Assembly: GCA_032249175.1 (NCBI GenBank)
Contig: JAVVGK010000001.1
Location: forward strand, 1 to 42,068
Origin: Candidatus Hydrothermia bacterium
GTDB lineage: Bacteria; Hydrothermota; Hydrothermia; LBFQ01; DSFT01
DNA: 42,068 nt
Direction: 5' to 3'
Shown here: positions 1 to 40,957 of the stretch, piece by piece
Numbering within the stretch: position 1 is the first letter of the stretch
Layout: every line of letters starts with the position of its first letter
The notes under the pieces: generated by a model
What the model was told of the DNA's origin: nothing
The model's input: only the letters and a program-made list of their open reading frames with translations
Databases searched by the model: none
Translations under genes and position numbers: made by a program

Positions 1-98
1 TCAACTCCTATTCCTTCAATAACCTCAAAAACTTCTTCTGGTATCTTATTTTCAATTAAATCCTCATAAGTATATATTTTTTCAGTAATCTGTTTCAT
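1..98 (-). CDS. Hypothetical protein, N-terminal 32 codons only (runs off the window); weak resemblance to Uma2/DUF820-type N-termini
   Basis: Hand translation of the minus strand from ATG (96-98) gives MKQITEKIYTYEDLIENKIPEEVFEVIEGIGV, open to the window edge. The CTTTAAAATTT promoter-like motif lies directly upstream (103-113). Confidence 0.45.
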   Translation of the reverse strand, partial: MKQITEKIYTYEDLIENKIPEEVFEVIEGIGV

Positions 99-123
99 CT
101 TTAAATTTTAAAGCATAAAAAGT

Positions 124-270
124 GCTTTGTCCAATAATTCTAAAATTACGATTATTTCTTATTTTCCCCACCCACCCTAAAAATAAGCCTTCCGCTTAAA
201 ACTTCGCCCCCCTTAAATTCCCCCCTAAAATAAATAATTTCCTAAAATTTTGATATTTATCAGACAAAGC
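124..270 (+). repeat. MITE-like repeat, copy 1 (internally deleted form)
   Basis: Starts GCTTTGTCCAATAATTC and ends TTATCAGACAAAGC (inverted repeat). Contains the CTTATTTT/AAAATAAG hairpin with a CCCCACCCACCCT loop and the AAGCC..GCTT hairpin. Homologous to 40771-40946. Confidence 0.8.
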
Positions 271-281
271 AAAAACTTCTT

Positions 282-445
282 GCCCTGTCCAATAATTCTG
301 AAATTAAGATTATTACTTTATCTTCTCACCTGCCCTGAGAATAAGCCTTCGCTTTATAAATACCCATATTTTACCGACCTTAAAATCAAGCCTAAATTTA
401 AACCCTACATAAAATCAATAATGCTAAATCATCCTTTAAAATTTT
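282..445 (+). repeat. MITE-like repeat, copy 2 (degenerate; right end not recognisable)
   Basis: GCCCTGTCCAATAATTCTGAAATT left end. The hairpin is retained with a changed stem (TTCTC..GAGAA), followed by AAGCCTTCGCTT. Lies in tandem with copy 1. Confidence 0.6.
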
Positions 446-448
446 GTA

Positions 449-817
449 ATGAATATCTCAAAAAAATTTTTTAACCTTTTATGGCAGGTAAGTGATGAGG
501 TTGAAGAGAGAGGCTACTTGCTAAATCCAGAGATATTCTTACAGCTTAGAGAGGAACTTGCTACTTTGCTACTGGAAAAAGTAAGGGAATTTTTTAGAGA
601 ATACTCAGGGAATGCTCATTTCATACTTTTTGTATCTGAGTCTATGGAATTCAGTAAAGATGGAATTTTAGAGTATGTTGATGGTGAGAATGAGGTTGAA
701 GTTACATTTAGATATTTCATAAGAGTTCTTCCTATTCAAAGGGGGGAAGAAATTTTAAGCATTTTTAAAAAACGATTTAATTTTATTATGCTTGGAGCTA
801 TAAGAATTTCAGATTGA
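449..817 (+). CDS. Hypothetical protein (122 aa, acidic), first gene of the lanthipeptide locus
   Basis: ORF track. ATG lies 3 nt after CTTTAAAATTTT (434-445). No family recognised. Confidence 0.6.
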   Translation: MNISKKFFNLLWQVSDEVEERGYLLNPEIFLQLREELATLLLEKVREFFREYSGNAHFILFVSESMEFSKDGILEYVDGENEVEVTFRYFIRVLPIQRGEEILSIFKKRFNFIMLGAIRISD

Positions 818-861
818 AACTTTTATACCCCTTTTTTCGTTAATTATATCCTATGGAATTA

Positions 862-938
862 TATGAGCCTTTTTTTCTTAAAAATTAAAAAAGGAGGTTG
901 AAGAAGATGGTAAATGTTCTATCACTACAAGCGATGAA
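862..938 (+). repeat. Direct repeat 1 of the precursor cassette (upstream region + RBS + leader codons 1-10)
   Basis: 77 nt identical to 1074-1150: TATGAGCCTTTTTTTCTTAAAAATTAAAAAAGGAGGTTGAAGAAGATGGTAAATGTTCTATCACTACAAGCGATGAA. Confidence 0.95.
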
Positions 939-1038
939 AGGGGAGAATATGAATAAGCCTGGTGGAGCAAGTACTATAAGTTGGAGCTTCTGTTCCACAC
1001 TGAGCTGGCATTGTGGGGGTGGAAATGAAAAAAGTTAG
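907..1038 (+). CDS. lanA: Class III lanthipeptide precursor A1 (43 aa): MVNVLSLQAMKGENMNKPGGASTISWSFCSTLSWHCGGGNEKS
   Basis: Hand-translated; too short for the ORF track. AAGGAGG lies 9 nt upstream of ATG. Leader has an LxLQ motif (VLSLQ). Core has S-T-I-S-W-S-F-C (S-x2-S-x3-C) and S-T-L-S-W-H-C (S-x2-S-x2-C). Sits immediately upstream of a LanKC gene. Confidence 0.8.
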   Translation: MVNVLSLQAMKGENMNKPGGASTISWSFCSTLSWHCGGGNEKS

Positions 1039-1045
1039 AGGAAAT

Positions 1046-1063
1046 AGGGGGTTTATCCCCCCT
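1046..1063 (+). terminator. Short GC hairpin (GGGGG-TTTAT-CCCCC) between the two precursor genes; possible attenuator or partial terminator
   Basis: G run 1047-1051 pairs with C run 1057-1062, 8 nt after the A1 stop codon. No T-tract follows. Confidence 0.3.
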
Positions 1064-1073
1064 GCTATAAAAT

Positions 1074-1150
1074 TATGAGCCTTTTTTTCTTAAAAATTAA
1101 AAAAGGAGGTTGAAGAAGATGGTAAATGTTCTATCACTACAAGCGATGAA
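1074..1150 (+). repeat. Direct repeat 2 of the precursor cassette
   Basis: Identical 77 nt to 862-938. Confidence 0.95.
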
Positions 1151-1292
1151 TGAGAATAATAGTAATGGTAATAGTGTCATAAGTGCCTCCTTTTGCTCAG
1201 CAATAAGTTTATTTGGTTGTAAAAAAGTAAAGAAAGACAATGATAGGAAATATTCTCTCAAATCCTCGCTTAGCTACGGCTGTAAATTATAA
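1119..1292 (+). CDS. lanA: Class III lanthipeptide precursor A2 (57 aa): MVNVLSLQAMNENNSNGNSVISASFCSAISLFGCKKVKKDNDRKYSLKSSLSYGCKL
   Basis: ORF track 1110..1292 (TTG). ATG 1119 is preferred because it matches A1 and sits 9 nt after AAGGAGG. Motifs: SVISASFC, SAISLFGC and SSLSYGC. The 3' end overlaps the lanKC start by 53 nt. Confidence 0.75.
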   Translation: MVNVLSLQAMNENNSNGNSVISASFCSAISLFGCKKVKKDNDRKYSLKSSLSYGCKL

Positions 1293-3723
1293 ATTTAAAT
1301 TATTAGCTAAAAAACTATTACCTTCTGATTGGAAAATGGAAGAAATGGATAATATTTGGATTGTTTGCTCTAATCCTAAAAATGATTTCCCAAAGCAAGG
1401 TTTTAAAATTCATATTAGTGCTACAATTTTAAATGCTAAGGAAATTCTAAAAACTTCAATTCCTATAATTGTTTCACACAATTCTAATTTCAAATTTTTA
1501 AAAGAATTAAAAAATTTACTATTCATGAATTCAAGAATGGCAAATAGAGGCAGTAGTGGAAAATTCATTACAATATATCCACCTAATGAAGAAGTTTTTA
1601 AAGCACTATTAGAAGAGCTTTATAAATCTTTAAAGCATTATGAAGGTCCTTATATTCTTTCCGATATGAGATATAAGGATTGTAAGGTTTTATATTATCG
1701 CTATGGTGGATTTTGGAAAATGGAAAGGATAAATGTAAAAGGTGAAAGGATTTATGTTATTGAAGCACCTGATGGAAGTTATTATGATGATATTAGACAT
1801 CCATTTTATACACTACCACCTTGGATAAAAGACCCATTTGGTAATGAAACAATAACGCCAAAAGAAGAGATTATTCTTAATGAAAGATATAAAGTAATTT
1901 CAGCAATTCAATTTTCAAATAATGGTGGAATTTATAATGCTTATGATTTATTAGAAAATAAAGAAGTAGTAATAAAGGAAGCAAGACCTTATGTAAGTAT
2001 GAGTTTAAATGGTATAGATGCTGTTTATTTATTAAAAAAGGAATATGAAATTTTAAAAATGTTAGAAAATGAAAATGTAGCACCAAAAGCTTATGAAATT
2101 TTTCAAGAATGGGAGCATTGGTTTTTAGTAGAAGAGAAATTAGAAGGGATAAATTTAAGAAATTTTGTAGCTATAAATGCCCCTATATTAAATCCATTAG
2201 CAAGCGAAAAGGATTTCCAGAATTATTTAGAGAAGTTTATTACTATTGCTGAAAACATAGCAAAACATCTTTCCATTCTTCATAAATATAATATTGTTTT
2301 TGGAGACTTTTCACCCAATAATATTATTATCAATCCTCAAACCCTTAATGTAAAATTTATAGACTTTGAGGGTGCTTATATAATAGGCAATAATAAATGG
2401 TATAATGTTTTTACACCTGGATTTTCTTCACCTCAATTGAGAAAAAATAAAAGACCTACTTTTGAAGATGACTATTATGCCTTTGGTGAAATTTTACAAG
2501 CCCTATTATTTACCAACAATACGCTATTTTTTATTGCTCCAACATTAAGAAAAAAATTCTTAAATAAACTTATAAAAGATTATCATTTTCCTAAAATTTT
2601 CAAAGAAGTTATTTTAAATTTAATAAAATATGAGCCAAAATCCCGCATAAAACCAATTGAAGCTGTAAATATATTAAAAACCAATAAAAGAATTGTCAAT
2701 TATAAAGAAAATGTTAAAATAATGGATTTAAGAACTTATATTGAAAAGACAAAAAAGGGAATTATAAAGATATTTCAAAAGAAAAAGGAAGGGAATTTAA
2801 ATTTCGCATTTGGGGATTTGGGAGTAATCTATGTTTTAAATCTTGTAGGCGAAAACTTTAAAGAATATTTAAAATCTCAAAGTTTAGAAAATTATCCACC
2901 TGGTTTATATGTAGGTTTAAGTGGAATAGCTTGGGCATTTTTAGATTTAAATTTAAATGATTTAGCAATAGAAGCATTAAATAAAGCAAAGAGAAGTCCA
3001 TTATTATATGAAAGTTTAGATATGTTTTATGGTATTTCTGGATATGGACTGACAAATTTAAAGTTTTATAAAAGGTTAAAAGACAAAACATTTTTAAATA
3101 ATGCTATTGAAGTTTATGAATTTATAAAAAATAGAGAATTGAAATTTCAGGAGATTGGATATGGTCATGGAGCAAGTGGAGTTGCATTATTTTTAATAAA
3201 ATTATATGAATTTTTAAGAAATGAAGATATAAAGAATTTAGCTATTTACTTATTAAAACAAGATTTAGAAAATGGAGTAAATACAAATGGATATTTAACA
3301 TTTCCACAAGAAGAGGATAGTTCCACAGTTTTGCCTTATGTAGAATATGGAAGTGCTGGTATAATAGGTGTTTTAGTAAGGTTTTATGAGATTTTAAAAG
3401 AAGAATGGATTTTAGAATATATAAAAAATATCTTACCTGATTTAGAGAGGACATTTACGATATTTCCATCACAAATAGATGGACTTGCAGGCTTGGGTGA
3501 AAGTTTATTAGATTTAGAATTGAAATTAAATTATAAAACAAAAATTTATAAAATTTTAGAAGGTTTAAGAATTTACGCTATTTTTAAAGATGGTTGTATA
3601 TTTTATCCAAGGAGTAATCTTGATAGTATTGGAATTCATTGGGCAGATGGCTCATCTGGTATATTAGACTTTCTACATCGCTTATATAATAAAAGAAACG
3701 AGAGAACACTATGGGATTTTTAA
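1240..3723 (+). CDS. lanKC: Class III lanthipeptide synthetase (LanKC: lyase - Ser/Thr kinase - zinc-ligand-less cyclase)
   Basis: N-terminal lyase motifs: GFKIHISA and GKFITIYP. Kinase motifs: VVIKEAR, FGDFSPNNIII and KFIDFEGA. C-terminal LanC-like Gly-rich repeats: GLSGIAWAF, GISGYGL, GYGHGASGVALF, YGSAGIIGVL, DGLAGLGESL and WADGSSGIL. No Cys/Cys/His zinc triad is present. Confidence 0.9.
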   Translation: MIGNILSNPRLATAVNYKFKLLAKKLLPSDWKMEEMDNIWIVCSNPKNDFPKQGFKIHISATILNAKEILKTSIPIIVSHNSNFKFLKELKNLLFMNSRMANRGSSGKFITIYPPNEEVFKALLEELYKSLKHYEGPYILSDMRYKDCKVLYYRYGGFWKMERINVKGERIYVIEAPDGSYYDDIRHPFYTLPPWIKDPFGNETITPKEEIILNERYKVISAIQFSNNGGIYNAYDLLENKEVVIKEARPYVSMSLNGIDAVYLLKKEYEILKMLENENVAPKAYEIFQEWEHWFLVEEKLEGINLRNFVAINAPILNPLASEKDFQNYLEKFITIAENIAKHLSILHKYNIVFGDFSPNNIIINPQTLNVKFIDFEGAYIIGNNKWYNVFTPGFSSPQLRKNKRPTFEDDYYAFGEILQALLFTNNTLFFIAPTLRKKFLNKLIKDYHFPKIFKEVILNLIKYEPKSRIKPIEAVNILKTNKRIVNYKENVKIMDLRTYIEKTKKGIIKIFQKKKEGNLNFAFGDLGVIYVLNLVGENFKEYLKSQSLENYPPGLYVGLSGIAWAFLDLNLNDLAIEALNKAKRSPLLYESLDMFYGISGYGLTNLKFYKRLKDKTFLNNAIEVYEFIKNRELKFQEIGYGHGASGVALFLIKLYEFLRNEDIKNLAIYLLKQDLENGVNTNGYLTFPQEEDSSTVLPYVEYGSAGIIGVLVRFYEILKEEWILEYIKNILPDLERTFTIFPSQIDGLAGLGESLLDLELKLNYKTKIYKILEGLRIYAIFKDGCIFYPRSNLDSIGIHWADGSSGILDFLHRLYNKRNERTLWDF

Positions 3724-5249
3724 AAGAAGTCATTTTTAAATTTAAATTCTTCATCCTTATAAAAATTCTTATTATATGCTTAATTTTTCCAATCCTTTCA
3801 TTCTTTGAGCCACTTTTGAATAAATACCTATTTGATTATGGTATTATGGCAGGTGATTTTAAGAAATTTGTAATTTTACTTTCTCTAATTACTATTTTTT
3901 CATTTATCTCTCTTTTGCTTGAATACATAATTCAAATTTACGATGGATTTTTAAAAAATAAAATTAGGGAATATGTAATAGAGGCATTTGTAGAAAAGTT
4001 TTATGAACTGCCATATTCAGAAGTAATAAAGAAAGATAAGGGATATTATATAAGTAGAATTTATGAAGAGCCAACATCTGCTATAATAAATAGCTTGGAT
4101 TTATTTATAAACACATTAAGCTATACTCTTAATACAACTGCCCGATTTATTGCTATGCTTATACTTTCACCTATCGCAGCCATTACCGCACTTCCACTTA
4201 TTATCATTTCATATTTTTTAAGCAAGAAATTTCAGCCTTCTATTCATGAGCTTACTCAAAAACAATTAGAATATGAAGCCTTATTAAGAAATAAAATAGG
4301 AAACTTCATATCATCTTATATTTTTGTAAATACAAACAAAACTCATAATGTAGTTAAAAATCAATTATCAGCAATTCTAAAAAACTTTTTAAGTACTATT
4401 TATAATCTCATAAAAAAGCAATCTAATTTTTCTTATGTTTCTCAAATTGCTTCTGTAATTGTTCAAATAGCATTTATTATAATAAACGCTTATCTTTTAT
4501 TTATAAAGAGAATTACATTTGGAGATTTTGTAGGATTTCTTAATGCCTTTTATCCATTTTATTGGAACATAAGAGTTTTATTTGAATCAATTCCACAAGT
4601 CTTTTCAAGCATTTCGCAACTTCAAAGAATAGAAGCATTTAAAAATCAAAAATTTGAGCCAAAACACATTATATTTTCAGATATTATAGAATTAAAAGAT
4701 ATAGAATTTTCTTATGATAATTATAAAGTTTTTCAGAATTTCTCATTAAGAATAAAAAGAGGTGAAAAGGTTTTAATTTTTGGAGCAAATGGAACGGGTA
4801 AAACGACATTACTTTATATTATATCAGGATTTTTAGAGCCTCAAAAAGGCACTATAAGAACGATAAAAGACATTTCCATTTCCACAATAAACCTTATAGA
4901 TATGCCTATCAAAGAGTATTTAAATATAATTGTTTTTCAAAGGGAAAAGCTTTTGAATATGTTAAATGAGCTAAATTTAGATTTAAATAAGAAACCATCC
5001 GAATTATCAACAGGACAATTGAAAAAACTTTCAGTAGCATTAGCCTTATCAAAACCTGCTGATGTTTATTTATTAGATGAGCCATTAGAAAGTGTAGATA
5101 TAGAGGACAAAAGAAAACTTATAGAAATGATATTAAATGAAACAAAACAAAAAACCCTTCTTTTAACAACCCATGACTTAATTATAAATGAATATATAAA
5201 ATTCTTTGACAAAATTATAGAACTGAAAAAGGAGGAGGTAAAGATATGA
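3711..5249 (+). CDS. ABC exporter, fused permease-ATPase half-transporter (no C39 peptidase domain)
   Basis: N-terminal TM helices. Walker A GANGTGKTT, signature LSTGQLKKL, Walker B VYLLDEP, H-loop TTHD. 13-nt overlap with lanKC. Confidence 0.85.
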   Translation: MGFLKEVIFKFKFFILIKILIICLIFPILSFFEPLLNKYLFDYGIMAGDFKKFVILLSLITIFSFISLLLEYIIQIYDGFLKNKIREYVIEAFVEKFYELPYSEVIKKDKGYYISRIYEEPTSAIINSLDLFINTLSYTLNTTARFIAMLILSPIAAITALPLIIISYFLSKKFQPSIHELTQKQLEYEALLRNKIGNFISSYIFVNTNKTHNVVKNQLSAILKNFLSTIYNLIKKQSNFSYVSQIASVIVQIAFIIINAYLLFIKRITFGDFVGFLNAFYPFYWNIRVLFESIPQVFSSISQLQRIEAFKNQKFEPKHIIFSDIIELKDIEFSYDNYKVFQNFSLRIKRGEKVLIFGANGTGKTTLLYIISGFLEPQKGTIRTIKDISISTINLIDMPIKEYLNIIVFQREKLLNMLNELNLDLNKKPSELSTGQLKKLSVALALSKPADVYLLDEPLESVDIEDKRKLIEMILNETKQKTLLLTTHDLIINEYIKFFDKIIELKKEEVKI

Positions 5250-7420
5250 TAAACTTTATTATTTCCCTTGTTATAAGTGGGAAGGTTTTAGATGAAACAA
5301 CATCTGAGCCTATGGGATATACTGCTATAATGCTATATAAAGATACAATTCTCATAACAGGAACATATACAGATGAAAAGGGAAATTTCATAATAAAGGA
5401 TATAAAGCCTGGTGAATACATTTTATATGCTCACTTTATAGGATATGAAAAGCAAAAGATAAATTTAACAATAAATAAAGATACAAGTATAACAATAACA
5501 TTAAAACCATCAGGAATAGAATTAAAAGAGCAAGAAGTAAAGGCAACTGCTCCAAGAGTAAGATATGAAGTAGATAGAAAAATTGTATCACCAAGTAATG
5601 ATATAATAGCAAGGAGTGGAAGTGCTGTTGATGTTTTAAGAAATGTACCAGGTGTATCAGTAAGTCCTGATGGGAATGTAAAAATAAAAAATAGTGATAG
5701 ATATATTGTTTTTGTAGATGGAAAACCTACTAATTTAAGTTTAAAAGATATACCAGCAAGTCAAATAGAATATATTGAAGTAATAACAAATCCGTCAGCA
5801 GAATTTGATGCAGAAGGAAATGCCATTATAAATGTCATATTAAAAAAACAAAAAGATTATGGATATAGTGTTAATGTAAATGTAAATATGGATAGTTATG
5901 GGACAATTAGTCCTAATATATTTTATGGTTTAAAAATGGGCAATTTATCTACCTATATAAAATTAAAAGGTGGAAAAACAATAAGTAAATCATATTATGA
6001 AGGGCAAAAGATATTTCAAAAAGATACTATATTTGAAGATGCTAATACTAAATTTTCCTCTCTTTCACTTATTCCTACTTTTGGCATTAGTTATAATAAT
6101 TTTAATTTTGAAACAGGTGGAAGAATTTCCAATAGAGAAGGAGAAAATCAATATAACCAAACAATTTCAGGTATAAATTATACTAGAAATTACAATTTTA
6201 ATGAGAATTTTCAATCCTTTTATTTAACATCTGATTACACATATAAGAACATTAAAATTTTAGGATATTATTCAAAAAATCACAAATTATATGATGAAAT
6301 AAAGGATTCATCATCTAATGGTGGTGTAAAAATTATTACTGAAAAACCAAGTGAGAAATTTTATGGTCAAATAGATATAAAGAAGGATAAATTTTCATTT
6401 GGATATAAGGGCAGTATAAGTAATTACTTTATTAGTTTTGACTTTAATACAATTTCAAATCCAAAATTTCCATATCTTCCAAGTTATTTTATATCCACAA
6501 AAAGAATTGTTAATGCTGGTTATTTGGAATTTTCCTCTAATTATAAGAATATTCAATATAAATTGGGTTTAAGAGTTGAAAATACACAAATAAGAGCAGA
6601 TACTATAAAAAGAGAATATACAAATATCTTTCCTTCCTTAAATTTCTCATATAACTTTTCAAATCATTCAATATATTTAGGATATAGAAATGGAATATGG
6701 AGACCTTCTGATTATCAATTATTGCCATTATATCACTATCAATCATTTGATGAGATGGAAAAAGGGAATCCAACACTTTTGCCTGAATATTCAAATAGTG
6801 CGTCAATTGGTTTAAATTTAAACTTTGAAAAAATCTCAATAACTCCTGAAATTTACTTTACAAGAACAATACAAATACTTGATGTTAATGAATATCCTTA
6901 TGATACATTTAATGTAAGTGTAAAGGAATATATAAATGTAAATGAAGGTAGAAATTTCGGCTTTTCATTAAATATAAATTATACTCCCATTCAGATATTA
7001 ACATTAAGTTTAAATTCAAGTGTTTATAATTATTCCTATGAAAACATTTCACTTACAACTTATGAAATCAATAGCTCAATTCAAGCTTTTCTCTTATTCT
7101 TTGCTCTTCAAGGGAATTTATATTATACTCCTCGTTATGATTATTATTGGGGAAGGATAGGAGAGCAAATTTATTCTCAATTAGCTCTTATGACCCAAAT
7201 AAAAAATTACACATTCTCCTTAGTGTTTAACGACCCATTCAAAATTTATAAATTCAATATTACCGTAAATAAAGATAATTACTATGCTTATAAATTTAAT
7301 AGAATTCCATATCCTTATATTGCTCTTCAAGTAAGTTATAATTTCAATAAAAAGTTTAAGAAAGTCAAAAAAGAAGAAAATTATGATGTAGAAAATACAG
7401 GTGAGAGGTTTTTAAGGTAA
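5246..7420 (+). CDS. Outer-membrane beta-barrel protein, TonB-dependent-receptor-like (CarboxypepD_reg-like domain + plug + barrel; resembles the OMP_b-brl_3 type)
   Basis: N-terminal GKVLDETTSEPMGYTAIML...TDEKGNFIIKDIKPGEYILYAHFIGYEK. Plug-like SAVDVLRNVPGVSVSPDGNVKIKN...FVDGKP. Y/F/N-rich alternating barrel sequence. Terminal ...QVSYNF followed by a K/E-rich tail. ATGA overlap with the ABC gene and an AAGGAGGAGGT RBS. Confidence 0.75.
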   Translation: MINFIISLVISGKVLDETTSEPMGYTAIMLYKDTILITGTYTDEKGNFIIKDIKPGEYILYAHFIGYEKQKINLTINKDTSITITLKPSGIELKEQEVKATAPRVRYEVDRKIVSPSNDIIARSGSAVDVLRNVPGVSVSPDGNVKIKNSDRYIVFVDGKPTNLSLKDIPASQIEYIEVITNPSAEFDAEGNAIINVILKKQKDYGYSVNVNVNMDSYGTISPNIFYGLKMGNLSTYIKLKGGKTISKSYYEGQKIFQKDTIFEDANTKFSSLSLIPTFGISYNNFNFETGGRISNREGENQYNQTISGINYTRNYNFNENFQSFYLTSDYTYKNIKILGYYSKNHKLYDEIKDSSSNGGVKIITEKPSEKFYGQIDIKKDKFSFGYKGSISNYFISFDFNTISNPKFPYLPSYFISTKRIVNAGYLEFSSNYKNIQYKLGLRVENTQIRADTIKREYTNIFPSLNFSYNFSNHSIYLGYRNGIWRPSDYQLLPLYHYQSFDEMEKGNPTLLPEYSNSASIGLNLNFEKISITPEIYFTRTIQILDVNEYPYDTFNVSVKEYINVNEGRNFGFSLNINYTPIQILTLSLNSSVYNYSYENISLTTYEINSSIQAFLLFFALQGNLYYTPRYDYYWGRIGEQIYSQLALMTQIKNYTFSLVFNDPFKIYKFNITVNKDNYYAYKFNRIPYPYIALQVSYNFNKKFKKVKKEENYDVENTGERFLR

Positions 7421-7455
7421 AAGCCCTAATTTAAGGGTGGGTTGGGAACAAAGCC
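7421..7455 (-). repeat. Remnant of the MITE-like repeat core (AAGGGTGGGTTGGGAA)
   Basis: AAGCCCTAATTTAAGGGTGGGTTGGGAACAAAGCC resembles the G-rich strand of the repeat core (compare 21961-22000). Confidence 0.4.
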
Positions 7456-7476
7456 TAAACTTTAAAATTTATTACT

Positions 7477-8175
7477 TTGAAAATTTTACATTTATACTAT
7501 GACCTAATGAATACTTATGGTGATAGGGGAAATGTAATCATTCTTTTTAAAATAGCAGAGCATTTAAAATTAAAACCAAAAATCATAAAATATAGAATTG
7601 GTGATAAAATAACTGAAAACGTTGATTTTATATTCATAGGAGGTGGTGAAGATTGGCAACAGGAAATTATTTATAATGATTTTAAAAATTTGAAAAACTA
7701 TATTTTTGAGCATGTTGAGGAAAATAAGCCTTTGCTTGCTATATGTGGAGGATATCAATTGTTGGGTAAATTTTATAAAACAAATGAAGGGAAAATTATT
7801 GAAGGTCTTGGAATATTTGACATTTGGACAATAGCAGGGAAAAAACGATTAGTAGGAAATTTAATTGTTGATAGTCCTTTTGGAAAAATTGTTGGTTTTG
7901 AGAATCATTCAGGTAGAACTTATATAAATGGCTCTCCACTTGGTAATGTCATAATGGGTAGTGGTAATAATGGAGAAGATAAAACGGAAGGTTATATTTA
8001 TAAAAAAGCTATTGGAACTTATATGCACGGACCTTTCCTGTCAAAAAATCCAGAAATTGTAAAATTCATATTTAGCTCAATTTTAAATGATGAAATAAAA
8101 TTTAATTTTGATTTAGAGCAAAAAGCTAAAATGAAAGCTTTAAGTTTTAAAAGATTAAATGAAGGAAGAATTTAA
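7477..8175 (+). CDS. CobB/CobQ-like glutamine amidotransferase (GatD-like)
   Basis: MKILHLYYDLMNTYGDRGN, LAICGGYQLLG (nucleophile Cys), GFENHSGRT and YMHGP motifs. TTG start. Confidence 0.7.
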   Translation: MKILHLYYDLMNTYGDRGNVIILFKIAEHLKLKPKIIKYRIGDKITENVDFIFIGGGEDWQQEIIYNDFKNLKNYIFEHVEENKPLLAICGGYQLLGKFYKTNEGKIIEGLGIFDIWTIAGKKRLVGNLIVDSPFGKIVGFENHSGRTYINGSPLGNVIMGSGNNGEDKTEGYIYKKAIGTYMHGPFLSKNPEIVKFIFSSILNDEIKFNFDLEQKAKMKALSFKRLNEGRI

Positions 8176-9137
8176 CTTTTTATAGGTGTCTTTTCAATAA
8201 TTTCTTTTAAAATTATTTCAGAAGTTATATTATCAGCTTCTGCTAAAAAGTTTAAAATAATTCTATGTCTTAAAACATCAAAGAAAATGTACTTTACATC
8301 CTCTGTTGTAGCAAAATCTTTTCCTTCAATAAATGCTTTTGCTTTTGCGCCAATAATCAAAAATTGGCTTGCTCTTGGTCCTGCTCCGAATTGAACATAT
8401 TTTTTAACAATTTCTAAATCAGTTTCAGAAGGTCTTGTTTTTCTTACAAGATTTATAGCATATTTAACAACATGATCACCTACGGGAATTTCTCTAACTT
8501 TCATTTGAATTGTTAAGATATCATCTTTATTTAAAACTTTTTGAACTTCATAATTTTGCTCAATAGTTGTTCTTTTAACTATTTCTATTTCATTTTCAAA
8601 TGTTGGATAATTTAAAATAATTTCCATCATAAATCTATCTATCTGTGCTTCTGCAAGTGGATAAGTTCCTTCTTGCTCTATTGGATTTTGTGTTGCTAAA
8701 ACAAAAAATGGCTCTTCAAGCTCATAAGTTTTACCAAGAACTGTAACTCTTCTTTCTTGCATAGCTTCAAGTAATGCTGATTGGGTTTTAGGTGGTGTTC
8801 TATTTATTTCATCTGCTAAAATAACATTAGCAAATATAGGTCCTTTTACAAATTGAAAAAATCTACCATTAGGACCTTCTTGAATAATTTCAGTTCCAAG
8901 AATATCCATAGGCATTAAATCAGGTGTAAATTGAATTCTACTAAATTTTAAATCAAGTGCTTGTGATAATGTTTTAACCATAAGTGTTTTAGCAAGTCCT
9001 GGAACACCAACAAGTAAAACATGACCTTTTGAAAACATACAAATTAAAATTTTATTTATTACATCTTCATAATTTACTATAATTTTTGAAATTTCTGATT
9101 TTAGCTTATTTATTTTTTCAATCATAATTAAATTCAA
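8172..9137 (-). CDS. MoxR-family AAA+ ATPase
   Basis: GVPGLAKT Walker A, LADEINR Walker B, ATQNPIEQEGTYPLAEAQIDRF. Confidence 0.9.
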   Translation of the reverse strand: MNLIMIEKINKLKSEISKIIVNYEDVINKILICMFSKGHVLLVGVPGLAKTLMVKTLSQALDLKFSRIQFTPDLMPMDILGTEIIQEGPNGRFFQFVKGPIFANVILADEINRTPPKTQSALLEAMQERRVTVLGKTYELEEPFFVLATQNPIEQEGTYPLAEAQIDRFMMEIILNYPTFENEIEIVKRTTIEQNYEVQKVLNKDDILTIQMKVREIPVGDHVVKYAINLVRKTRPSETDLEIVKKYVQFGAGPRASQFLIIGAKAKAFIEGKDFATTEDVKYIFFDVLRHRIILNFLAEADNITSEIILKEIIEKTPIKS

Positions 9138-10287
9138 AGTGCTTTAAAAATTTTGTTAAATAAGATAAAAATTTCTTTCCTTCAAAAATTTCATAAGGCA
9201 TAAAAACACCATAATTTTCATATTTCAAAATATCAATTTCCTTAATTATTCCAAGTGCTGAAATAACACAACCATAACCTGTCATTTTTTGCATAGCAGT
9301 CCATTTTTCATCATATAAAACAATTCCATTAAATTCCTTAGTTCTATTTCCTGAAATTCCAATAACTTTCATTAAAACCATATCTTCATTTGTTTTTGGA
9401 ATAATTTTTTCAAGCATTTCAATTGTTGTTCTTCTTAAACCTCTTGCTTCATCAAAAAATCCAAGATTATATAACATCTTAATAACATCATAATGACCTT
9501 TATATCTTATTGTTTTATATTCTAAATTTTTACAAGGGTAATCAAACGGCATAAGAGAGACACCATCAGATGTTATAAGAGCTTCTAAATCACAAATGTA
9601 ATAATGACCATTTTTATAATCTAATTTTTGAAAATTCTTTAATTTTTCATAAATTTCCAAACTTTTAAATTTTATTTCTATTTCCTCAATTTCCGTTAAA
9701 ATTCCTTGATTAAAAACAATTTTATTATCCTTTCTTGAAACTGATAAATCCGTATATTCTTGAATAAGGCCTTCAATTGACCAAGTCGTGGCATATCTTA
9801 GGGGTCCTCCAAGGTTTGAGTTTATTGGCAAGCCACCAGTATATAAATAAACATTTTCAATTCCTTCTTCAATAAATAGATTTCCTATTATATTTATAAT
9901 TCCAGGTGCTAATCCTGTTTCAGGAACAATAAGAATTTTTTTTGCTTTCGCAAGGCTATCATAGGACCTTTGTTTTAATGTAGTCCAAGTACTTTGACCT
10001 AAATCCACATAGTTTGAGCCAACCTCAATTGCTAATTGTGTATAATACAAATTATTATAAAATGTTGTAGCATTAACAATAATGTCAGGTTTCAATTTGT
10101 TTAGGGCATCATAAATAATCTCACTTAATTTACTTAAAGAATTTACATTTTCAAATTTCTTTATAACTTCTTCTTCCTTGGTTTTATTAATATCATAAAC
10201 AAAAATCTCAAAATTTTTAAATTCATTCAACTGCTCTAAAATTGCCAAGCCCATCCTTCCTAACCCAAAAATTACAATTTTTTTCAT
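9118..10287 (-). CDS. Saccharopine dehydrogenase-family NAD(P)-binding oxidoreductase
   Basis: N-terminal Rossmann MKKIVIFGLGRMG. Overall length and layout fit the Sacchrp_dh N+C arrangement. Confidence 0.55.
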   Translation of the reverse strand: MKKIVIFGLGRMGLAILEQLNEFKNFEIFVYDINKTKEEEVIKKFENVNSLSKLSEIIYDALNKLKPDIIVNATTFYNNLYYTQLAIEVGSNYVDLGQSTWTTLKQRSYDSLAKAKKILIVPETGLAPGIINIIGNLFIEEGIENVYLYTGGLPINSNLGGPLRYATTWSIEGLIQEYTDLSVSRKDNKIVFNQGILTEIEEIEIKFKSLEIYEKLKNFQKLDYKNGHYYICDLEALITSDGVSLMPFDYPCKNLEYKTIRYKGHYDVIKMLYNLGFFDEARGLRRTTIEMLEKIIPKTNEDMVLMKVIGISGNRTKEFNGIVLYDEKWTAMQKMTGYGCVISALGIIKEIDILKYENYGVFMPYEIFEGKKFLSYLTKFLKHFEFNYD

Positions 10288-11532: not shown

Positions 11533-12045
11533 TTATTCAATTTGTCTTAAAGATGCTAATATATTATCTTTATTTACTCTTAAAATATAAACTTGATATT
11601 CCTTACCAATATGAGAAAATAAACTTTCAGAAATTTTCTTAGGAATATGTGAGGGCGGTATAAATCCTTTTTGACCAAGAACAGAGATTTCAAATCCTCC
11701 ATTTATAACATTTAAAATTTTTGCTTTTATGGGAATATTATTCTTTTTAGATTTTTTAAGAATTTTAAAAATTTTCTTTTCGTTTATTTTTGAATTTGCA
11801 GGTTTAAGCTCAATTTTTTTTGTAAGATAGTTAGCACTTATAATAATTGCTTCAATTTCTTGATTAATTTCAAGTTTTTTCTTCGTTTTTAAGTAGCCAA
11901 CCAAATCTAAATTTTTTAATTTTACAACATAACCTTCTTTAACTTTCTTTTCCACTATTACACTAATAGGTTTTTGATTGTCATATAAATCAAAAATAAT
12001 TTCCCACTTTTTTGCTCTTTCAATTACTTGTTCAGGACTTAACAT
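11533..12045 (-). CDS. S1-like RNA-binding domain protein
   Basis: KAKILNVINGGFEISVLGQKGFIPPSHI is typical of the S1 fold. A second degenerate S1-like segment lies N-terminal. Confidence 0.55.
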   Translation of the reverse strand: MLSPEQVIERAKKWEIIFDLYDNQKPISVIVEKKVKEGYVVKLKNLDLVGYLKTKKKLEINQEIEAIIISANYLTKKIELKPANSKINEKKIFKILKKSKKNNIPIKAKILNVINGGFEISVLGQKGFIPPSHIPKKISESLFSHIGKEYQVYILRVNKDNILASLRQIE

Positions 12046-12069: not shown

Positions 12070-12777
12070 CTAACCAAATCCTTCAATTATTGTTTTACTA
12101 AAAACAAATAAATAATAAGATAATCTTTTTATTGGGTCTTCAATAGGCATTTTTTTATTTAAATCTCTGTAAATTAAATCAATTGGAATTTCTATCATTT
12201 TTGGTTTAAGAAATATAAATTTAGCCCATATTTCACAAGGAATAGCATAATCAGTAGTTTTTAAATTTAATTTTTCAACTAAGTGTTTTCTATATCCTCT
12301 AAATCCACAAAAACTATCAGTTATATTAAAATTTGTAATTTCATTTATAAGTTTTGTGAAAACCATATTAACAAACTTTCTATCTTTTGGAAAATCTGTT
12401 AAAATTCTTGATTTTGGATGATAACGAGAGCAATTTACAAAATCGTATTCTTCAAGAAGCTTTCTAATTTCATAAATATATCTTGGCTCATGCTGACCAT
12501 CAGCATCCATAGTGATTATGAAATTGTAATTATTTTTTATAGCATACTCAAAACCTACAATTAAAGAGCCTCCATATCCTAAGTTTTTCTGATTCCTTAT
12601 AATTTCTTTAAAAATTTTACTCTTTTTAGCAATTTCATAAGTTCTATCTTCTGAATTATCATCAATTAGTAAAAAATCAAAATCATTACAACAAATTTTA
12701 ATATCCTCAATTAAATAATAAAAATTTTTTTCCTCATTATAAGCTGGAATAATTACAATTGTTTTATCCATTTTCAA
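12070..12777 (-). CDS. Family 2 glycosyltransferase (polyprenyl-phosphate sugar transferase-like)
   Basis: VIIPAYNEE, LIDDNSEDRT, MDADGQHEP. Confidence 0.85.
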   Translation of the reverse strand: MKMDKTIVIIPAYNEEKNFYYLIEDIKICCNDFDFLLIDDNSEDRTYEIAKKSKIFKEIIRNQKNLGYGGSLIVGFEYAIKNNYNFIITMDADGQHEPRYIYEIRKLLEEYDFVNCSRYHPKSRILTDFPKDRKFVNMVFTKLINEITNFNITDSFCGFRGYRKHLVEKLNLKTTDYAIPCEIWAKFIFLKPKMIEIPIDLIYRDLNKKMPIEDPIKRLSYYLFVFSKTIIEGFG

Positions 12778-14707
12778 ATTGAAGTGTATAAAGATGATAA
12801 TAAAAGCCTCTCTTATTCATAAGCTCATCATGTTTGCCCTCTTCAATTTTTTCACCATAATATAAAACAACGATTTTATCTGCTGATTTAATTGTTGAAA
12901 GTCTATGAGCAATTATAATAGCGGTTCTATTTTCTAATAATTTTTCAAGAGATTTTTGAATAATATATTCTGTTTCTTGATCTACATTACTCGTTGCTTC
13001 ATCAAGTAATAGAATTTTTGGATTGTTAGCTAATGCTCTTACAAAGGAAATAATTTGCCTTTGACCTGATGAAAAACCTGCTCCTCTCTCATTTACAAAC
13101 TTATTTAAATCAATTAAATTTTCAACATTTAGATATTTAAAATAATTTTCAACTTTACCATTTTTTCTATATAAAAAAACATTATCTTCAATGTTTCCTG
13201 AAAATAAAAACACATCTTGAAGAACAAGAGAAAATTGACTTCTTAAAAACTTCAAATCCAAATCCTTTATATTTACTCCATCAAGCAAAATTTCACCTCT
13301 TTGAACATCCCAAAATCTTAATAATAAATTCATAATTGTAGTCTTACCACTGCCTGTTGGACCAACAATAGCAACCTTCTCACCAGGTTTAACCTCTAAA
13401 TTAAAGTTCTTTAAAACCCAATTTTCATTTTCATAAGCAAAATAAACATTCCTAAATTCAATATGTCCCTTAACTTCTTTTAAGATAATACCTTTACCTT
13501 TATCTTCCTCTTTTTCAGATAAAAGTAAAAATATCCTTTTTGAAGCAATAAAAGCTGATTGCATAGTATTGTACTTTTCTGCTAAATCTCTAATTGGATT
13601 GAATAACATTTCAATATAATTTATAAATGCTACTAATCCTCCGAATGTAAATCCTTGCCTTAATATATCAATGCCACCATAATATATTAAAAGTGCGATA
13701 GCAATAGATGAGCCAAGACTAACTAAGGGCATAAAAATACCAAAGACATAAATTAAATTTAAAAATGCTTTAAACAAATCATCATTTATTTTAAAGAATT
13801 TACTTTTCATATAGTTTTGCGCATTAAATGCTTGAATTATTGATATACCTACAATACTTTCATTTAAAAATGCATTTAATTCTCCAAGAATCCTTCTGAC
13901 ATTATCATAAGCCTTTCTTGCAAAATATCTAAATAAGGCACTTGCGACTAATAGAAATGGGATAATTGAAAGAATAATTAAAGTAATTTTTACATTCATT
14001 AAAAGCATAATTGAAATTATTCCAATTATAATTACAAAATCTTTTATTAAACTTACCAAAACAGAAGTATAAAATTCATTTATTGCATCAACATCATTTG
14101 CCACTCTTGTGACAAGTCTTCCTACTTTTTGCTTTTGAAGGAATGAAATAGGAAGTTTTAATAAATGCTCAAATAATTTAGTTCTAATTTCGTATATACT
14201 TTTTTGTCCAAGTAATGTTAAAATGATAATTTGAAAATAATTCAAAATGAAATCAATTATTAAAAGAATTAAATATAATCCCGAAAAAAGTAAAATGCCT
14301 TTTATATCATCCTTCCTTAAAACTATTGGATTTTTTAGATTTTTATAATCTTCAGCGGAAATTATAAATTTGTCTTTAAATTTTATAGAATTTTCAATTG
14401 AATCTGAAATTATGAAATACCTTTCACTTGATAAATATCCAAGCTTTTCAAGTTCCACTCTTAAATGATTGGGTAGCTCATAAATAAGAACATAATTATC
14501 ATAAAAAGCATTCGGATATTTGTTCTTCCATTCTGGGATTTTGTTTAGTTTAATTACTTGTGGTGTAATATGTCTATCTATGGTTAATTTAACAATATAA
14601 GGCATTGAAAGTTCAATAATAGCAGATAATAATACTACAATAATTGATATAATAAGAAATTTCTTATAAGGTAAAACAAATGATAGTAGTTTTCTAAATT
14701 CTCCCAA
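12764..14707 (-). CDS. ABC exporter, fused permease-ATPase, with an enlarged first extracytoplasmic loop
   Basis: GPTGSGKTT, FSSGQRQ, LLLDEATS, AHRLST. About 100 aa lie between TM1 and TM2. Confidence 0.9.
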   Translation of the reverse strand: MGEFRKLLSFVLPYKKFLIISIIVVLLSAIIELSMPYIVKLTIDRHITPQVIKLNKIPEWKNKYPNAFYDNYVLIYELPNHLRVELEKLGYLSSERYFIISDSIENSIKFKDKFIISAEDYKNLKNPIVLRKDDIKGILLFSGLYLILLIIDFILNYFQIIILTLLGQKSIYEIRTKLFEHLLKLPISFLQKQKVGRLVTRVANDVDAINEFYTSVLVSLIKDFVIIIGIISIMLLMNVKITLIILSIIPFLLVASALFRYFARKAYDNVRRILGELNAFLNESIVGISIIQAFNAQNYMKSKFFKINDDLFKAFLNLIYVFGIFMPLVSLGSSIAIALLIYYGGIDILRQGFTFGGLVAFINYIEMLFNPIRDLAEKYNTMQSAFIASKRIFLLLSEKEEDKGKGIILKEVKGHIEFRNVYFAYENENWVLKNFNLEVKPGEKVAIVGPTGSGKTTIMNLLLRFWDVQRGEILLDGVNIKDLDLKFLRSQFSLVLQDVFLFSGNIEDNVFLYRKNGKVENYFKYLNVENLIDLNKFVNERGAGFSSGQRQIISFVRALANNPKILLLDEATSNVDQETEYIIQKSLEKLLENRTAIIIAHRLSTIKSADKIVVLYYGEKIEEGKHDELMNKRGFYYHLYTLQFENG

Positions 14708-14708
14708 C

Positions 14709-15821
14709 TTATTCCTCTATTAACTCAACATTTGCTCTTGGAATAGATAAAATTTTACCATTAACCTGAACTTTTAAAATTCTTGTCTTTGATTCAGTTT
14801 CTATACTTACAGGCTCAATAGGAAGCTCAACAACTCTCCCTATAAGACCAAAATAAGGCGCTCTTATAATTCTGACAAGTTTTCCAATTTTTAACATTCC
14901 ATCATCTTGATAATCACTTTCTTTTCCTTCCTTTAATGGAACAATAATTTCAGGTCTTATAACACCTGCTCTAATTTGTGTTGCACCATTTATGGAAGCT
15001 TTAAAGCTATCTAAGGATTTTAATAAATCAAATGTTCTTCTTGCCATTGGTACTTTACCAAAACCTTCGGTTATAATTATCGTTGTAGGAATGTTTTCAT
15101 TTCCTGTAATAGCAACACCAATATCATATCCAAGAATTTCCTTTATTACATAATCATCAATACCTCCTACTACAATACCATAAGCACCTCTTTCCATAGC
15201 TGTTCTTATCGTTTTAACATCAACATATGAGCCACCTATAATAATATTTCCTTCTTCATTCTCTAATAAATGCTCAACTTTTAATTCCTCATCAGGACTA
15301 CTTACTGCTACTCTTATTTTTCCTATCTTTTCTCCTCCAATTCCAAATATACCTTGAATATATGCTCCATAAGTTTCAATTTCAACACCTTCATTCTCAA
15401 ATACCCTAACAACTTTACCATCAAAATAAGCATTTATTTGAACAGGAATAGGTGGTTCTCTTAAAATTACTTGTCCTGTTATTTCAGATATATTCTCAAT
15501 ATAACCATCTATTGGTGAAATAACTGGATTTTTAAGAAGTCCAAATAAAATTTTGCTAATTGCTATACTTTCTCCCTTTTTTATCGCCTCACCTTCGGAT
15601 TTTGTTAGATATTTCTTTATTTCATTTGGACTTATTCCAAGAACTCCAGCAACATTTAAAATTACAACATTTCCAGGAATTTCTGTTTTTGCTACTATAT
15701 CTTCCGCCTTTACAAATTGACCTTCCTTTACAAGAACAGAGCCTTTAATAGGTAATTTTCTTTCCTTTTTAATTAATGTCCATCTTGAAACCTTTAAGCC
15801 AGGTGTATAGGCATATGCCAT
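14709..15821 (-). CDS. Conserved hypothetical protein (370 aa)
   Basis: Long ORF with non-low-complexity sequence. N-terminal lipoyl/barrel-sandwich-like segment. Family not recognised. Confidence 0.6.
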   Translation of the reverse strand: MAYAYTPGLKVSRWTLIKKERKLPIKGSVLVKEGQFVKAEDIVAKTEIPGNVVILNVAGVLGISPNEIKKYLTKSEGEAIKKGESIAISKILFGLLKNPVISPIDGYIENISEITGQVILREPPIPVQINAYFDGKVVRVFENEGVEIETYGAYIQGIFGIGGEKIGKIRVAVSSPDEELKVEHLLENEEGNIIIGGSYVDVKTIRTAMERGAYGIVVGGIDDYVIKEILGYDIGVAITGNENIPTTIIITEGFGKVPMARRTFDLLKSLDSFKASINGATQIRAGVIRPEIIVPLKEGKESDYQDDGMLKIGKLVRIIRAPYFGLIGRVVELPIEPVSIETESKTRILKVQVNGKILSIPRANVELIEE

Positions 15822-15856
15822 AACAAAAAGTTTAAAATTTTAAAGGTTGTTTATAT

Positions 15857-15929
15857 GCTTTGTCCAATAATTCTAAAATTACGATTATTTCTTATTTTTC
15901 CCGCACACCCTGAAAATAAGGCTTTGCCT
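15857..15929 (+). repeat. MITE-like repeat, copy 3 (half element: one end plus both hairpins)
   Basis: GCTTTGTCCAATAATTCTAAAATTACGATTATTTCTTATTTTTCCCGCACACCCTGAAAATAAGGCTTTGCC. Confidence 0.8.
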
Positions 15930-21000: not shown

Positions 21001-21602
21001 TGTAATGTTAATGCATATAAAACGATATTCATACCAAATTTTAAGGCAGTTTCTTGAACTTCTGGTGGGTCACCATGCCTATCAGTCCATCCATCAGATA
21101 TATTGCTCTCATAAGTATATAGTAAAACTAATCTATCTCCTATAAATATGCCATATGCTTTTGGAGGTTTTCCATCGTGTTGGTGAATTTTAGGTAATTT
21201 ATCAAATTTCCAATAGATATGAAAAATTGGATGACTTAAAGGAATTTCTTCAAGTTCTTTATCAGGAAAAACCTTTTTAATTTCTCTTCTAAAATGAATA
21301 TCAAGTCCATAATCATCATCTACATATAAAAACCCTCCCCTTTCAAGATATTCTCTTAAATTTTTAGCATCCATTTCAGAAAAATAGACATTTCCATGTC
21401 CTGTCATATAAATTATTGGATAATTGAAAATTTCTCTACTACTTGGTTTTACTATTGCTTGTCTTTCATCAAGGTCTATATTTATATATTTCTTTATAAA
21501 TTTTACGAGATTTGGAATAACCTCCGGGTCATTATACCAATCACCCCCACCCTCATATTGTAATCTTGCAATTTGAAATGACAATAAAAGAAATGACATC
21601 AA
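20997..21602 (-). CDS. DUF4159 domain protein (start TTG 21602 or ATG 21599)
   Basis: RLQYEGGGDWYNDPEVIPNL, YMTGHGNVYFSEMDAKNLREYLERGGFLYVDD. Confidence 0.7.
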   Translation of the reverse strand: MMSFLLLSFQIARLQYEGGGDWYNDPEVIPNLVKFIKKYINIDLDERQAIVKPSSREIFNYPIIYMTGHGNVYFSEMDAKNLREYLERGGFLYVDDDYGLDIHFRREIKKVFPDKELEEIPLSHPIFHIYWKFDKLPKIHQHDGKPPKAYGIFIGDRLVLLYTYESNISDGWTDRHGDPPEVQETALKFGMNIVLYALTLQ

Positions 21603-21647
21603 TTATTAAAATTTTAAGGCTACCCTAAAAACAAGCAACTTAATTTT

Positions 21648-21823: not shown

Positions 21824-21834
21824 AAACAATATAT

Positions 21835-40946: not shown

Positions 40947-40957
40947 AAAATTATCTT

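Follow-up and report, generated by a model that had tools for sequence, protein, structure and literature searches.

A plugged TonB-dependent-transporter-type barrel is inherited with the ABC exporter and the synthetase of class III lanthipeptide loci in WOR-3 bacteria

How peptides made on ribosomes and modified after translation (RiPPs) cross the outer membrane of diderm bacteria is largely unknown outside systems that join an ATP-binding cassette (ABC) exporter to an adaptor and TolC, and lanthipeptide biology comes mostly from single-membrane producers. The question is raised by a 42,068-nucleotide stretch of the genome of a hot-spring Candidatus Hydrothermia bacterium of the WOR-3 lineage (contig JAVVGK010000001.1; this whole stretch is referred to as the window), in which a class III lanthipeptide operon closes with a gene (5246-7420, + strand) for a 724-aa protein resembling TonB-dependent receptors. 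An initial annotation offered three roles for this protein: an exit route across the outer membrane, a receptor for re-uptake or sensing of the mature peptide, or self-protection. We find export to be the best supported of the three and self-protection the least, the barrel being inherited with the lanthipeptide synthetase LanKC and the ABC exporter, and the ABC-barrel pair being reused with a different class of peptide. Both an inner and an outer membrane are present in the WOR-3 strain that was first brought into culture (PMC12285271), and among the genes of the window are those for a heptosyltransferase, a TolC-like OEP protein and signal peptidase I.

Its model and domain matches place the 724-aa protein in the TonB-dependent-transporter superfamily, as a plugged barrel belonging to the PF14905 branch. 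Its N-terminal extension matches PF13715 (CarbopepD_reg_2) over residues 10-96 (E 2.5e-16, 59.9 bits against a cut-off of 32.2) and also PF13620 (45.8 bits, cut-off 32.3). These are followed by the plug family PF07715 at residues 124-186 (22.2 bits, just below the cut-off of 23.9), TonB_dep_Rec_b-barrel (PF00593) at residues 258-610, and PF14905 (OMP_b-brl_3) at residues 379-698 (146 bits, cut-off 27). The initial annotation had read a receptor-like domain order of the OMP_b-brl_3 type and had named PF13715, PF07715 and PF14905; all three are matched, PF07715 below its cut-off in the window protein, and PF07715 is present in the barrel homologues P0005-P0010 (P-numbers denote barrel homologues, L-numbers the genomic and metagenomic loci compared).

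The fold predicted by AlphaFold2 from a 78-sequence alignment (mean predicted local distance difference test (pLDDT) score 88.9, predicted TM-score (pTM) 0.78) agrees with this order. An N-terminal CarboxypepD_reg-type β-sandwich (residues 8-86, 5267-5503; DSSP strands from 8-16 to 81-86) is connected through a disordered linker with a TonB-box-like motif (residues 91-99, IELKEQEVK, 5516-5542, pLDDT <50) to a plug domain of mixed α/β structure (residues 105-199, 5558-5842). The β-barrel itself (residues 206-703, 5861-7354), to which PF14905 and PF00593 match, is built of long antiparallel strands with pLDDT mostly >90; DSSP splits its wall into ~24 segments (the superfamily nominally has 22 strands). 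Model and alignment place a disordered tail, basic then acidic and ending ENTGERFLR, at the C terminus (residues 708-724, 7367-7417), which is the clade-specific version of a family-wide tail. All of these parts lie on the + strand. A search of the PDB by barrel sequence returned nothing at E 0.01. When the model was compared with the PDB using Foldseek, the top 50 matches listed were all TonB-dependent transporters (E 1.6e-21 to 8.6e-19), including PfeA, PhuR, FyuA, ChuA, Cir, BtuB and OprC, with TM-scores of 0.53-0.69 and alignments that cover whole transporters (634-824 alignment columns). The model and its structural neighbours are thus those of a plugged barrel, as the initial annotation had supposed.

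The barrel gene is the last of a tight run of genes on the + strand (860-7420) in a window of 26.5% G+C. The run opens with two precursor genes that have identical leaders (MVNVLSLQAM...): A1 (907-1038, +; MVNVLSLQAMKGENMNKPGGASTISWSFCSTLSWHCGGGNEKS), in which the LSLQ leader is joined to two motifs of the form S-x-x-S-x-x(x)-C, and A2 (1119-1292, +), which has a basic linker and three ring motifs (SVISASFC, SAISLFGC and SSLSYGC). In another frame, the gene for LanKC (1240-3723, +) starts within the 3' end of A2; LanKC is a class III lanthionine synthetase with RamC_N, Pkinase and LANC_like domains in Pfam. LanKC scores 646 bits against NCBIfam NF038151 (cut-off 575), and 463 bits, under the cut-off of 650, against the class IV (LanL) model. 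Together with the two LSLQ-leader precursors, these scores indicate a bona fide class III lanthipeptide cluster, the setting that had been assumed for the barrel from the outset. Overlapping LanKC by 13 nt is the gene for an ABC half-transporter (3711-5249, +), which has a six-helix membrane domain and an ATPase domain (PF00664, PF00005) and no C39 peptidase; among NCBIfam models it aligns best with bacteriocin and type I secretion exporters, over their membrane and ATPase parts. The ABC stop codon and the barrel start codon then overlap in ATGA (5246-5249, +), as first noted.

No membrane-fusion protein is encoded in the cassette, and the sole upstream open reading frame (ORF; 449-817) matches no Pfam or NCBIfam family, which argues that the locus is not an ABC-adaptor-TolC type system. 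The only TolC-like gene found in the window, encoding the OEP protein (23261-24343, +), lies ~16 kb from the cassette. Pfam and NCBIfam profile searches likewise found no gene for a binding protein or an inner-membrane importer in the cassette.

Translation signals set the barrel gene apart from its immediate neighbors. When the duplex energy with the 16S 3' end was scored over the 25 nt upstream of 42 genes, the Shine-Dalgarno sequence of the barrel gene (AGGAGGAGGT, 5231-5240, +, within the 3' end of the ABC gene and 5 nt before the ATG) gave −13.3 kcal/mol and ranked third, behind A1 and A2 (−13.9 each), in agreement with the early impression that it is among the strongest in the window. 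Ahead of LanKC and the ABC gene a Shine-Dalgarno sequence is practically lacking (−2.7 and −3.0 kcal/mol), and translation of both presumably relies on coupling to the upstream gene. Strong Shine-Dalgarno sequences are limited to the two precursors, the barrel and a gene at 34786-35445. The operon appears to end with the barrel, since the following GatD-like amidotransferase gene has a promoter-like box of its own (CTTTAAAATTT, 7460-7470, +) ~15 nt ahead of its TTG start (7477).

The initial annotation had left open that the adjacency of the barrel and the lanthipeptide genes might be chance. Comparison of flanking sequences argues otherwise. DNA homology with the 93%-identical contigs L091 and L093 spans positions 1091-7420 of the window, and that with the 87%-identical contigs L001 and L094 spans 1284-7420, in each case ending at the barrel stop codon, 7420. 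The flanks differ: the neighbors are an ORF of unknown family and GatD in the window, leuS and a 140-aa ORF in L091, and restriction-modification genes and ClpB in L001. In L005 (70% identical) homology ends at 7418 and a MutS gene follows, giving a fourth context. These breakpoints indicate that the LanKC-ABC-barrel cassette moves as a block.

The same three genes recur at much greater distances. The closest genome matches are metagenome-assembled genomes (MAGs) of candidate division WOR-3, among them Ca. Caldipriscus T1.2, the nearest one with a name (68% barrel identity). In G+C content the window (26.5%) agrees better with Ca. Thermoproauctor (27.4%) than with Caldipriscus (~44%), which suggests an affiliation with the former. 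The triad is found in four deep WOR-3 subclades, namely the clade of the window, L009/L015 (barrel 39% identical to that of the window), L175 (~35%, the identity of P0008) and L025/L046 (30-31%), and also in the distant locus L165 (43% G+C), whose barrel has no N-terminal extension (24.5% in its best tblastn match, to the L018 barrel). Barrel identity is ~31-41% between WOR-3 subclades and 19-25% to L165. The 4-nt overlap between the ABC and barrel genes recurs in three subclades; it is repeated in L001 and L175, and also in L005 by ORF coordinates. Fusion of the two genes by frameshift was considered and rejected, other lineages having gaps of 3-36 nt, or a precursor gene, between them. Orthologous barrels thus repeatedly adjoin LanKC-ABC genes.

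Trees of the barrel, ABC and LanKC proteins group the loci alike, and pairwise distances are correlated (barrel-ABC 0.80, 55 pairs; barrel-LanKC 0.92; ABC-LanKC 0.96). The MAG JALWYV01 contains two paralogous ABC-barrel pairs (L013 and L017), each matching its partner clade, so the agreement of the trees does not just reflect species phylogeny. The recurrence and the trees argue that LanKC, ABC and barrel are inherited as one unit and that their adjacency is not chance.

The unit is not invariant. We tallied 19 informative barrel lineages (the counts sum to 20, the cut locus L005 being listed separately). The full triad is present in 8 (the window, L001, L009, L015, L175, L025, L046 and L165) and probable in L005, whose contig is cut inside the ABC gene. 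Two lineages have ABC and barrel without LanKC (L013/L014/L020; L017/L018), two have ABC and barrel with a different peptide (L023; L024), one has the barrel with a precursor gene only (L022), and in six the barrel stands alone (L004/L021; L006; L012; L026; L171; L173). No precursor-like ORFs of class III type were found in the orphan ABC-barrel and stand-alone barrel loci, and no LanKC was found near the ~60 Bacteroidota family members. The initial annotation had treated the barrel as a dedicated component of LanKC loci; the association with LanKC holds, and the tally refines the claim, the conserved core being the ABC-barrel pair rather than LanKC-barrel.

In two loci the pair is reused with a different peptide. 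L024 has a conserved Cys-rich 57-aa ORF (9744-9917) between the ABC gene and the barrel gene; in L023 the order is ABC, the Cys-rich 57-aa ORF (2608-2781), barrel, a radical-SAM gene and a second ABC gene. The Cys-rich ORF of both loci begins MRILHKPAQTDTTLVDTTSIHCPALFCKDKYS... The radical-SAM enzyme and ABC transporter of L023 (5267-8235) lie 3' of the barrel homologue, and the locus resembles a radical-SAM RiPP cluster, as yet uncharacterised, with a barrel of the same clade. Precursor genes may also be interleaved with the pair: L025 and L046 have an A2-type precursor gene placed between ABC and barrel. L022 and L046 (92-95% DNA identity) differ by a clean 4.7-kb indel (L022 1961-1971 versus L046 5046-9724), such that L022 is without the A1-type precursor, LanKC and ABC and retains an orphan A2-type precursor and an intact barrel (97% protein identity). 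The orphan precursor makes deletion in L022 the simpler direction.

The reverse view was taken from the 80 nearest LanKC loci in metagenomes. In many loci whose LanKC is 30-39% identical to that of the window, LanKC is followed, also where no barrel is present, by an ABC protein 30-45% identical to that of L018, which suggests that the ABC protein is an ordinary class III exporter. Outside the clade of the window, L165 is the only locus in this survey with a PF14905 barrel. Other large proteins occupy comparable places: in L132, L133 and L136 a 739-aa protein lies 3' of the ABC gene (L132 14190-16409; L136 5124-7343), with a weak, sub-cut-off CBM9 match in L136 (21.5 bits) and no family match in L132, and in L123 a 654-aa protein with no family match follows LanKC-ABC (5884-7848). 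Like the barrel, the large proteins of L132, L136 and L123 have short hydrophobic N-termini. In L141 a protein with a weak DUF5916 match (7107-9308, − strand) precedes the LanKC-ABC cluster. The L132/L136, L123 and L141 loci come from lower-G+C sediment metagenomes, and their large proteins may be alternative outer-membrane partners. A further variant concerns the synthetase: the cassettes of L095 and L096 lack ~280 nt inside LanKC (window 2769-3043), which could be a natural in-frame deletion or an assembly artefact.

The precursors are conserved along with the enzymes. A1-like precursors occur in L009, L015, L098 and L046, and A2-type precursors, the third C-terminal ring motif of which follows the pattern ...KSSLSxxC, in L009, L015, L098, L025, L046 and L022. 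Homologous A1+A2 pairs are present in L009 (998-1381), L015 (2212-2604) and L098 (1409-1810), and the two types are retained together across ~40-50% LanKC divergence, which suggests a two-peptide product. The core peptides look hydrophobic and aromatic and contain no conserved metal ligands (no His, Asp or Glu pattern). The idea of a metallophore, which would need re-uptake, is therefore not supported.

The reading of these observations that we prefer, with a probability of roughly 0.45, is that the barrel passes the peptide across the outer membrane. LanKC would modify both precursors in the cytoplasm, and the ABC exporter would carry the modified peptides into the periplasm. The barrel would then let them cross the outer membrane, completing with the ABC protein a two-gene envelope-crossing module; this last passage would probably be driven via the TonB-box-like segment, as for the secretion of PopC by Oar in Myxococcus. 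We infer the direction of transport, the dependence on TonB and the peptide as cargo from several lines of evidence. The sole transporter of the cassette is exporter-like, and neither adaptor, binding protein nor importer accompanies it. Inheritance and duplication of ABC and barrel are paired, the two recur together with a second peptide class, and their genes may have a precursor gene in between; a metal-binding signature is missing from the cores. There is, finally, the precedent of Oar, which has the same domain order and is required for the secretion of PopC.

Oar of Myxococcus xanthus is a TonB-dependent transporter that is needed for secretion of the protease PopC and depends on its TonB box (PMC6434023). 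It shares with the window barrel a CarboxypepD_reg-type extension, plug and barrel in the same order, with a TonB box where the window protein has a TonB-box-like motif, and, as proposed here from sequence and model, the outward passage of periplasmic cargo without adaptor or TolC. The two differ in that the cargo of Oar is a folded protein, whereas that of the window barrel would be a small modified peptide; the Oar gene does not adjoin an ABC exporter or biosynthetic enzyme, as the window barrel gene does. The window barrel also matches PF14905, with no Oar-specific family among its Pfam matches, and in contrast to the normal signal peptide of Oar its N-terminus is short. Among its relatives the TonB-box-like motif reads EEVVVEA for most members of the clade and L.EVEV.AE for the wider family. 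No TonB-ExbB-ExbD genes were found among the window genes searched against Pfam, about a dozen ORFs lying outside that search.

Several points weigh against export. To our knowledge, every characterised TonB-dependent transporter other than Oar imports its substrate, and the only RiPP-cluster TonB-dependent transporter that we know to have been characterised, MbnT of methanobactin clusters, does re-uptake. The TonB-box-like motif of the window barrel is partly degenerate (KEQEVKATA) and is recognised at the motif level only. The N-terminus is not a canonical signal peptide, so that even the outer-membrane location of the barrel is one that we infer. An intact barrel occurs without adjacent ABC or LanKC genes in six lineages, which implies that it can work, or at least persist, alone, and L022 keeps barrel and A2-type precursor though LanKC and ABC are absent. 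Lastly, the barrel gene of L173 (P0014, 8001-10256, +) is divergent from phoBR-pstSCAB-phoU (816-7426, −), which recalls Fjoh_0545 of Flavobacterium, a PF14905 protein encoded in a PhoBR operon and induced when phosphate is depleted (PMC8115612).

The main rival, which we consider rather unlikely, is a receptor that imports or binds the mature lanthipeptide, the ABC protein serving for export only. Import is the default for this fold, judging by the Foldseek neighbors, and siderophore and methanobactin clusters carry a cognate receptor. PF14905 members elsewhere look linked to nutrients, as Fjoh_0545 and P0014 illustrate; barrels persist without LanKC or ABC, as if non-producers kept the receptor; and the high translation signal of the barrel gene fits an abundant receptor equally well. 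However, neither a periplasmic binding protein nor an importer of the inner membrane is found in the cassette, conserved metal ligands are missing from the hydrophobic and aromatic cores, and the extension is of CarboxypepD_reg type and not the STN domain of signalling transporters (PMC6434023). A pure receptor would, moreover, need no ABC partner, whereas loci without LanKC usually keep ABC with the barrel (L013, L018 and L024), and agreement between the trees of the two proteins extends to paralogues from a single genome. If the protein were a receptor, these hot-spring streamer bacteria would take their class III lanthipeptides up again, implying a signalling or shared-good role that is new for the class.

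We regard it as quite improbable that ABC and barrel protect the cell against, or clear, its own or a relative's membrane-active peptide. On this account the pairs found without LanKC or any precursor gene (L013/L014/L020 and L017/L018) would be orphan immunity genes, which are common for bacteriocins, and the amphipathic or hydrophobic look of the cores would fit. The ABC transporters of lanthipeptide immunity (LanFEG), however, consist of separate ATPase and permease subunits, whereas the protein encoded here is a fused half-transporter that aligns best with exporters in NCBIfam and, as the sole transporter of the cassette, must also export the product; we know of no plugged barrel that confers immunity. 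We regard it as equally improbable that the barrel is functionally unrelated, an ordinary nutrient transporter captured beside lanthipeptide genes and carried by linkage: many family members, including the ~60 Bacteroidota loci, lie away from LanKC, stand-alone WOR-3 paralogues exist, and L022 and L046 show the barrel at the same chromosomal site with and without LanKC-ABC, but the triad with its three agreeing trees is kept in four deep WOR-3 subclades and L165, the overlap of stop and start codons recurs, at least three contexts have the barrel stop codon as the exact edge of the cassette, L025 and L046 have a precursor gene between ABC and barrel, and the same barrel clade lies beside a different peptide with a radical-SAM enzyme.

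The export proposal can be set beside known RiPP systems. PF14905 and TonB-linked proteins have been associated with Bacteroidetes loci for graspetides (ATP-grasp RiPPs) and predicted to export (PMC8939145). As in the window, those barrels belong to the same Pfam family, come from the Fibrobacteres-Chlorobi-Bacteroidetes (FCB) group and lie beside RiPP and ABC genes; the RiPP class and phylum differ, and the association is a purely statistical one, given in a table and one sentence (31 loci; PMC8939145). The itf cluster of Bacteroides thetaiotaomicron places the TonB-dependent transporter ItfF beside the ABC/C39 transporter ItfE (reviewed in PMC11002830). It is a diderm RiPP cluster of the FCB group with an ABC exporter and a TonB-dependent-type barrel, as in the window, and differs in radical SAM and YcaO chemistry and in a C39 domain on the ABC protein, which the window protein does not have.

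The transporter MbnT, which imports copper-loaded methanobactin with a periplasmic binding protein and a separate exporter, resembles the window barrel in being a TonB-dependent transporter within a RiPP biosynthetic operon; in contrast, the window peptides have no metal-binding signature and no binding protein is encoded. Export by ABC protein, membrane-fusion protein and TolC, as in type I and bacteriocin systems such as CvaAB-TolC, involves the same kind of ABC exporter as in the window, where, unlike in CvaAB-TolC, no membrane-fusion protein is found in the cassette and the outer-membrane partner would be a plugged barrel. The class III clusters of Actinobacteria and Firmicutes (SapB ram, labyrinthopeptin) share with the window LanKC, LxLQ-type leaders, cores of the S-x-x-S-x-x-x-C type and ABC half-transporters that lack a protease domain (PMC7268733). 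Their producers, however, have a single membrane and their clusters no outer-membrane component, whereas the window operon closes with a barrel gene.

Earlier work lists such barrels for RiPP clusters of Bacteroidota (PMC8939145; PMC11002830), so the idea itself is not new. We found no report linking TonB-type barrels to class III lanthipeptide loci or to WOR-3, and a WOR-3 genomics paper makes no mention of TonB or lanthipeptides. What is new here is the peptide class, the phylum, the joint inheritance of synthetase, exporter and barrel, the natural indel and the cases of module swapping. A wider proposal, which we hold more tentatively than export in the window itself and consider somewhat doubtful, is that WOR-3 bacteria, and possibly other FCB diderms, have a dedicated two-step RiPP secretion route in which an ABC exporter is followed by a co-evolving, reversed TonB-type barrel without adaptor or TolC. 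One ABC-barrel module would then serve several RiPP chemistries in turn, those of class III lanthipeptides and radical-SAM peptides and perhaps also of graspetides and itf peptides, and the single example of Oar and PopC would become a general export function. If the barrel is an exit route, small peptides would have in TonB-type barrels a second general device for export across the outer membrane, and genome-mining tools should count them as cluster components. Either way, the compact 6-kb cassette offers a defined construct for heterologous study.

The N-terminus of the barrel is short. Only 11 residues (MINFIISLVIS, none of them basic) precede the anchor Gly of its first strand, and in the model just residues 1-7 (MINFIIS) lie outside the N-terminal domain. 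Barrels of the clade share this start (MINFIISLVISGKV, MISVIVGLTISGRV and similar) and have 10-11 residues before the anchor Gly, compared with a median of 36 in 63 other family members, most of which carry a classic MKK...AQ signal peptide. A longer N-terminus from an upstream start is excluded: a stop 12 codons ahead of the ATG closes the frame upstream, which offers no alternative start, and clade homologues from independent assemblies start alike.

Short uncharged N-termini are also found in other proteins of the lineage. In the window they occur in PhoD (MLIIFFYFNYSVASGD, 25209-26528, −; Pfam domain from residue 11), in a DUF4159 protein (MMSFLLLSFQIARLQ, 20997-21602, −; domain from residue 10) and in the TolC-like OEP protein (MIIIVSLSLENF), and elsewhere in a DUF5916 protein of L006 (MVILYALTGF; 12494-14602, −). 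A 647-aa protein without known family in L046 (3112-5055) likewise has a short hydrophobic N-terminus. These exported proteins have ~10-13 uncharged hydrophobic residues before the first domain. A normal lipoprotein signal (MKGKFLILILLFGC) and a signal peptidase I gene (26546-27205) are present in the window. The WOR-3 lineage may thus use unusually short signal sequences. The lack of a basic n-region that the initial annotation had remarked upon is conserved in the clade, and the resemblance to other exported proteins partly explains the targeting puzzle it had raised, as a question of the lineage and not of this gene.

Some features of the operon and its surroundings remain to be described. 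The precursor region contains a 93-nt duplication (repeat family D3), the first copy of which (862-954, +) carries the ribosome-binding site and leader-coding start of A1; the second (1074-1166) was found by repeat search and is 94% identical. Directly 3' of the A1 stop, a G+C-rich hairpin read by eye (GGGGG-TTTAT-CCCCC, 1037-1063, +) is possibly an attenuating terminator between precursor and enzyme genes; the terminator scan called its stem on the minus strand only. A consensus scan of 1-8400 was uninformative at 26% G+C, giving 63 promoter-like sites versus 55.5 in shuffled sequence and 4 terminator-like sites versus 2.7.

A TTTAAAATTT-type box starting 13-18 nt before the start codon, with no Shine-Dalgarno sequence, characterises ~13 of 41 window genes, among them + strand genes starting at 449, 16331, 26546, 31264 and 36345 and minus-strand genes at 11533-12045, 14709-15821, 20997-21602 and 25209-26528. 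Its position suggests a promoter for leaderless mRNAs that is widespread in the organism. Elsewhere in the window, a second ABC exporter (647 aa), a 370-aa protein without Pfam family and a family 2 glycosyltransferase are encoded at 12764-15821 (−), a region unrelated to the lanthipeptide cassette.

Intergenic regions contain, in both orientations, a dispersed repeat of ~70-190 nt with the core TGCTTTGTCCAATAATTCTAAAATTA...CCCTAAAAATAAGCCTT. An Rfam scan of the whole window returned two tRNAs only, so the repeat does not belong to a known RNA family. Copies lie at 103-413, 15825-15924, 21647-22037, 40759-41036 and 42026-42068 of the window and, among the compared loci, at 2086-2452 and 5857-5943 of L001, 11-234 of L091 and 2154-2240 of L094. 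In the window and in L001 a copy lies just upstream of the lanthipeptide cassette, and the repeat might be involved in moving it.

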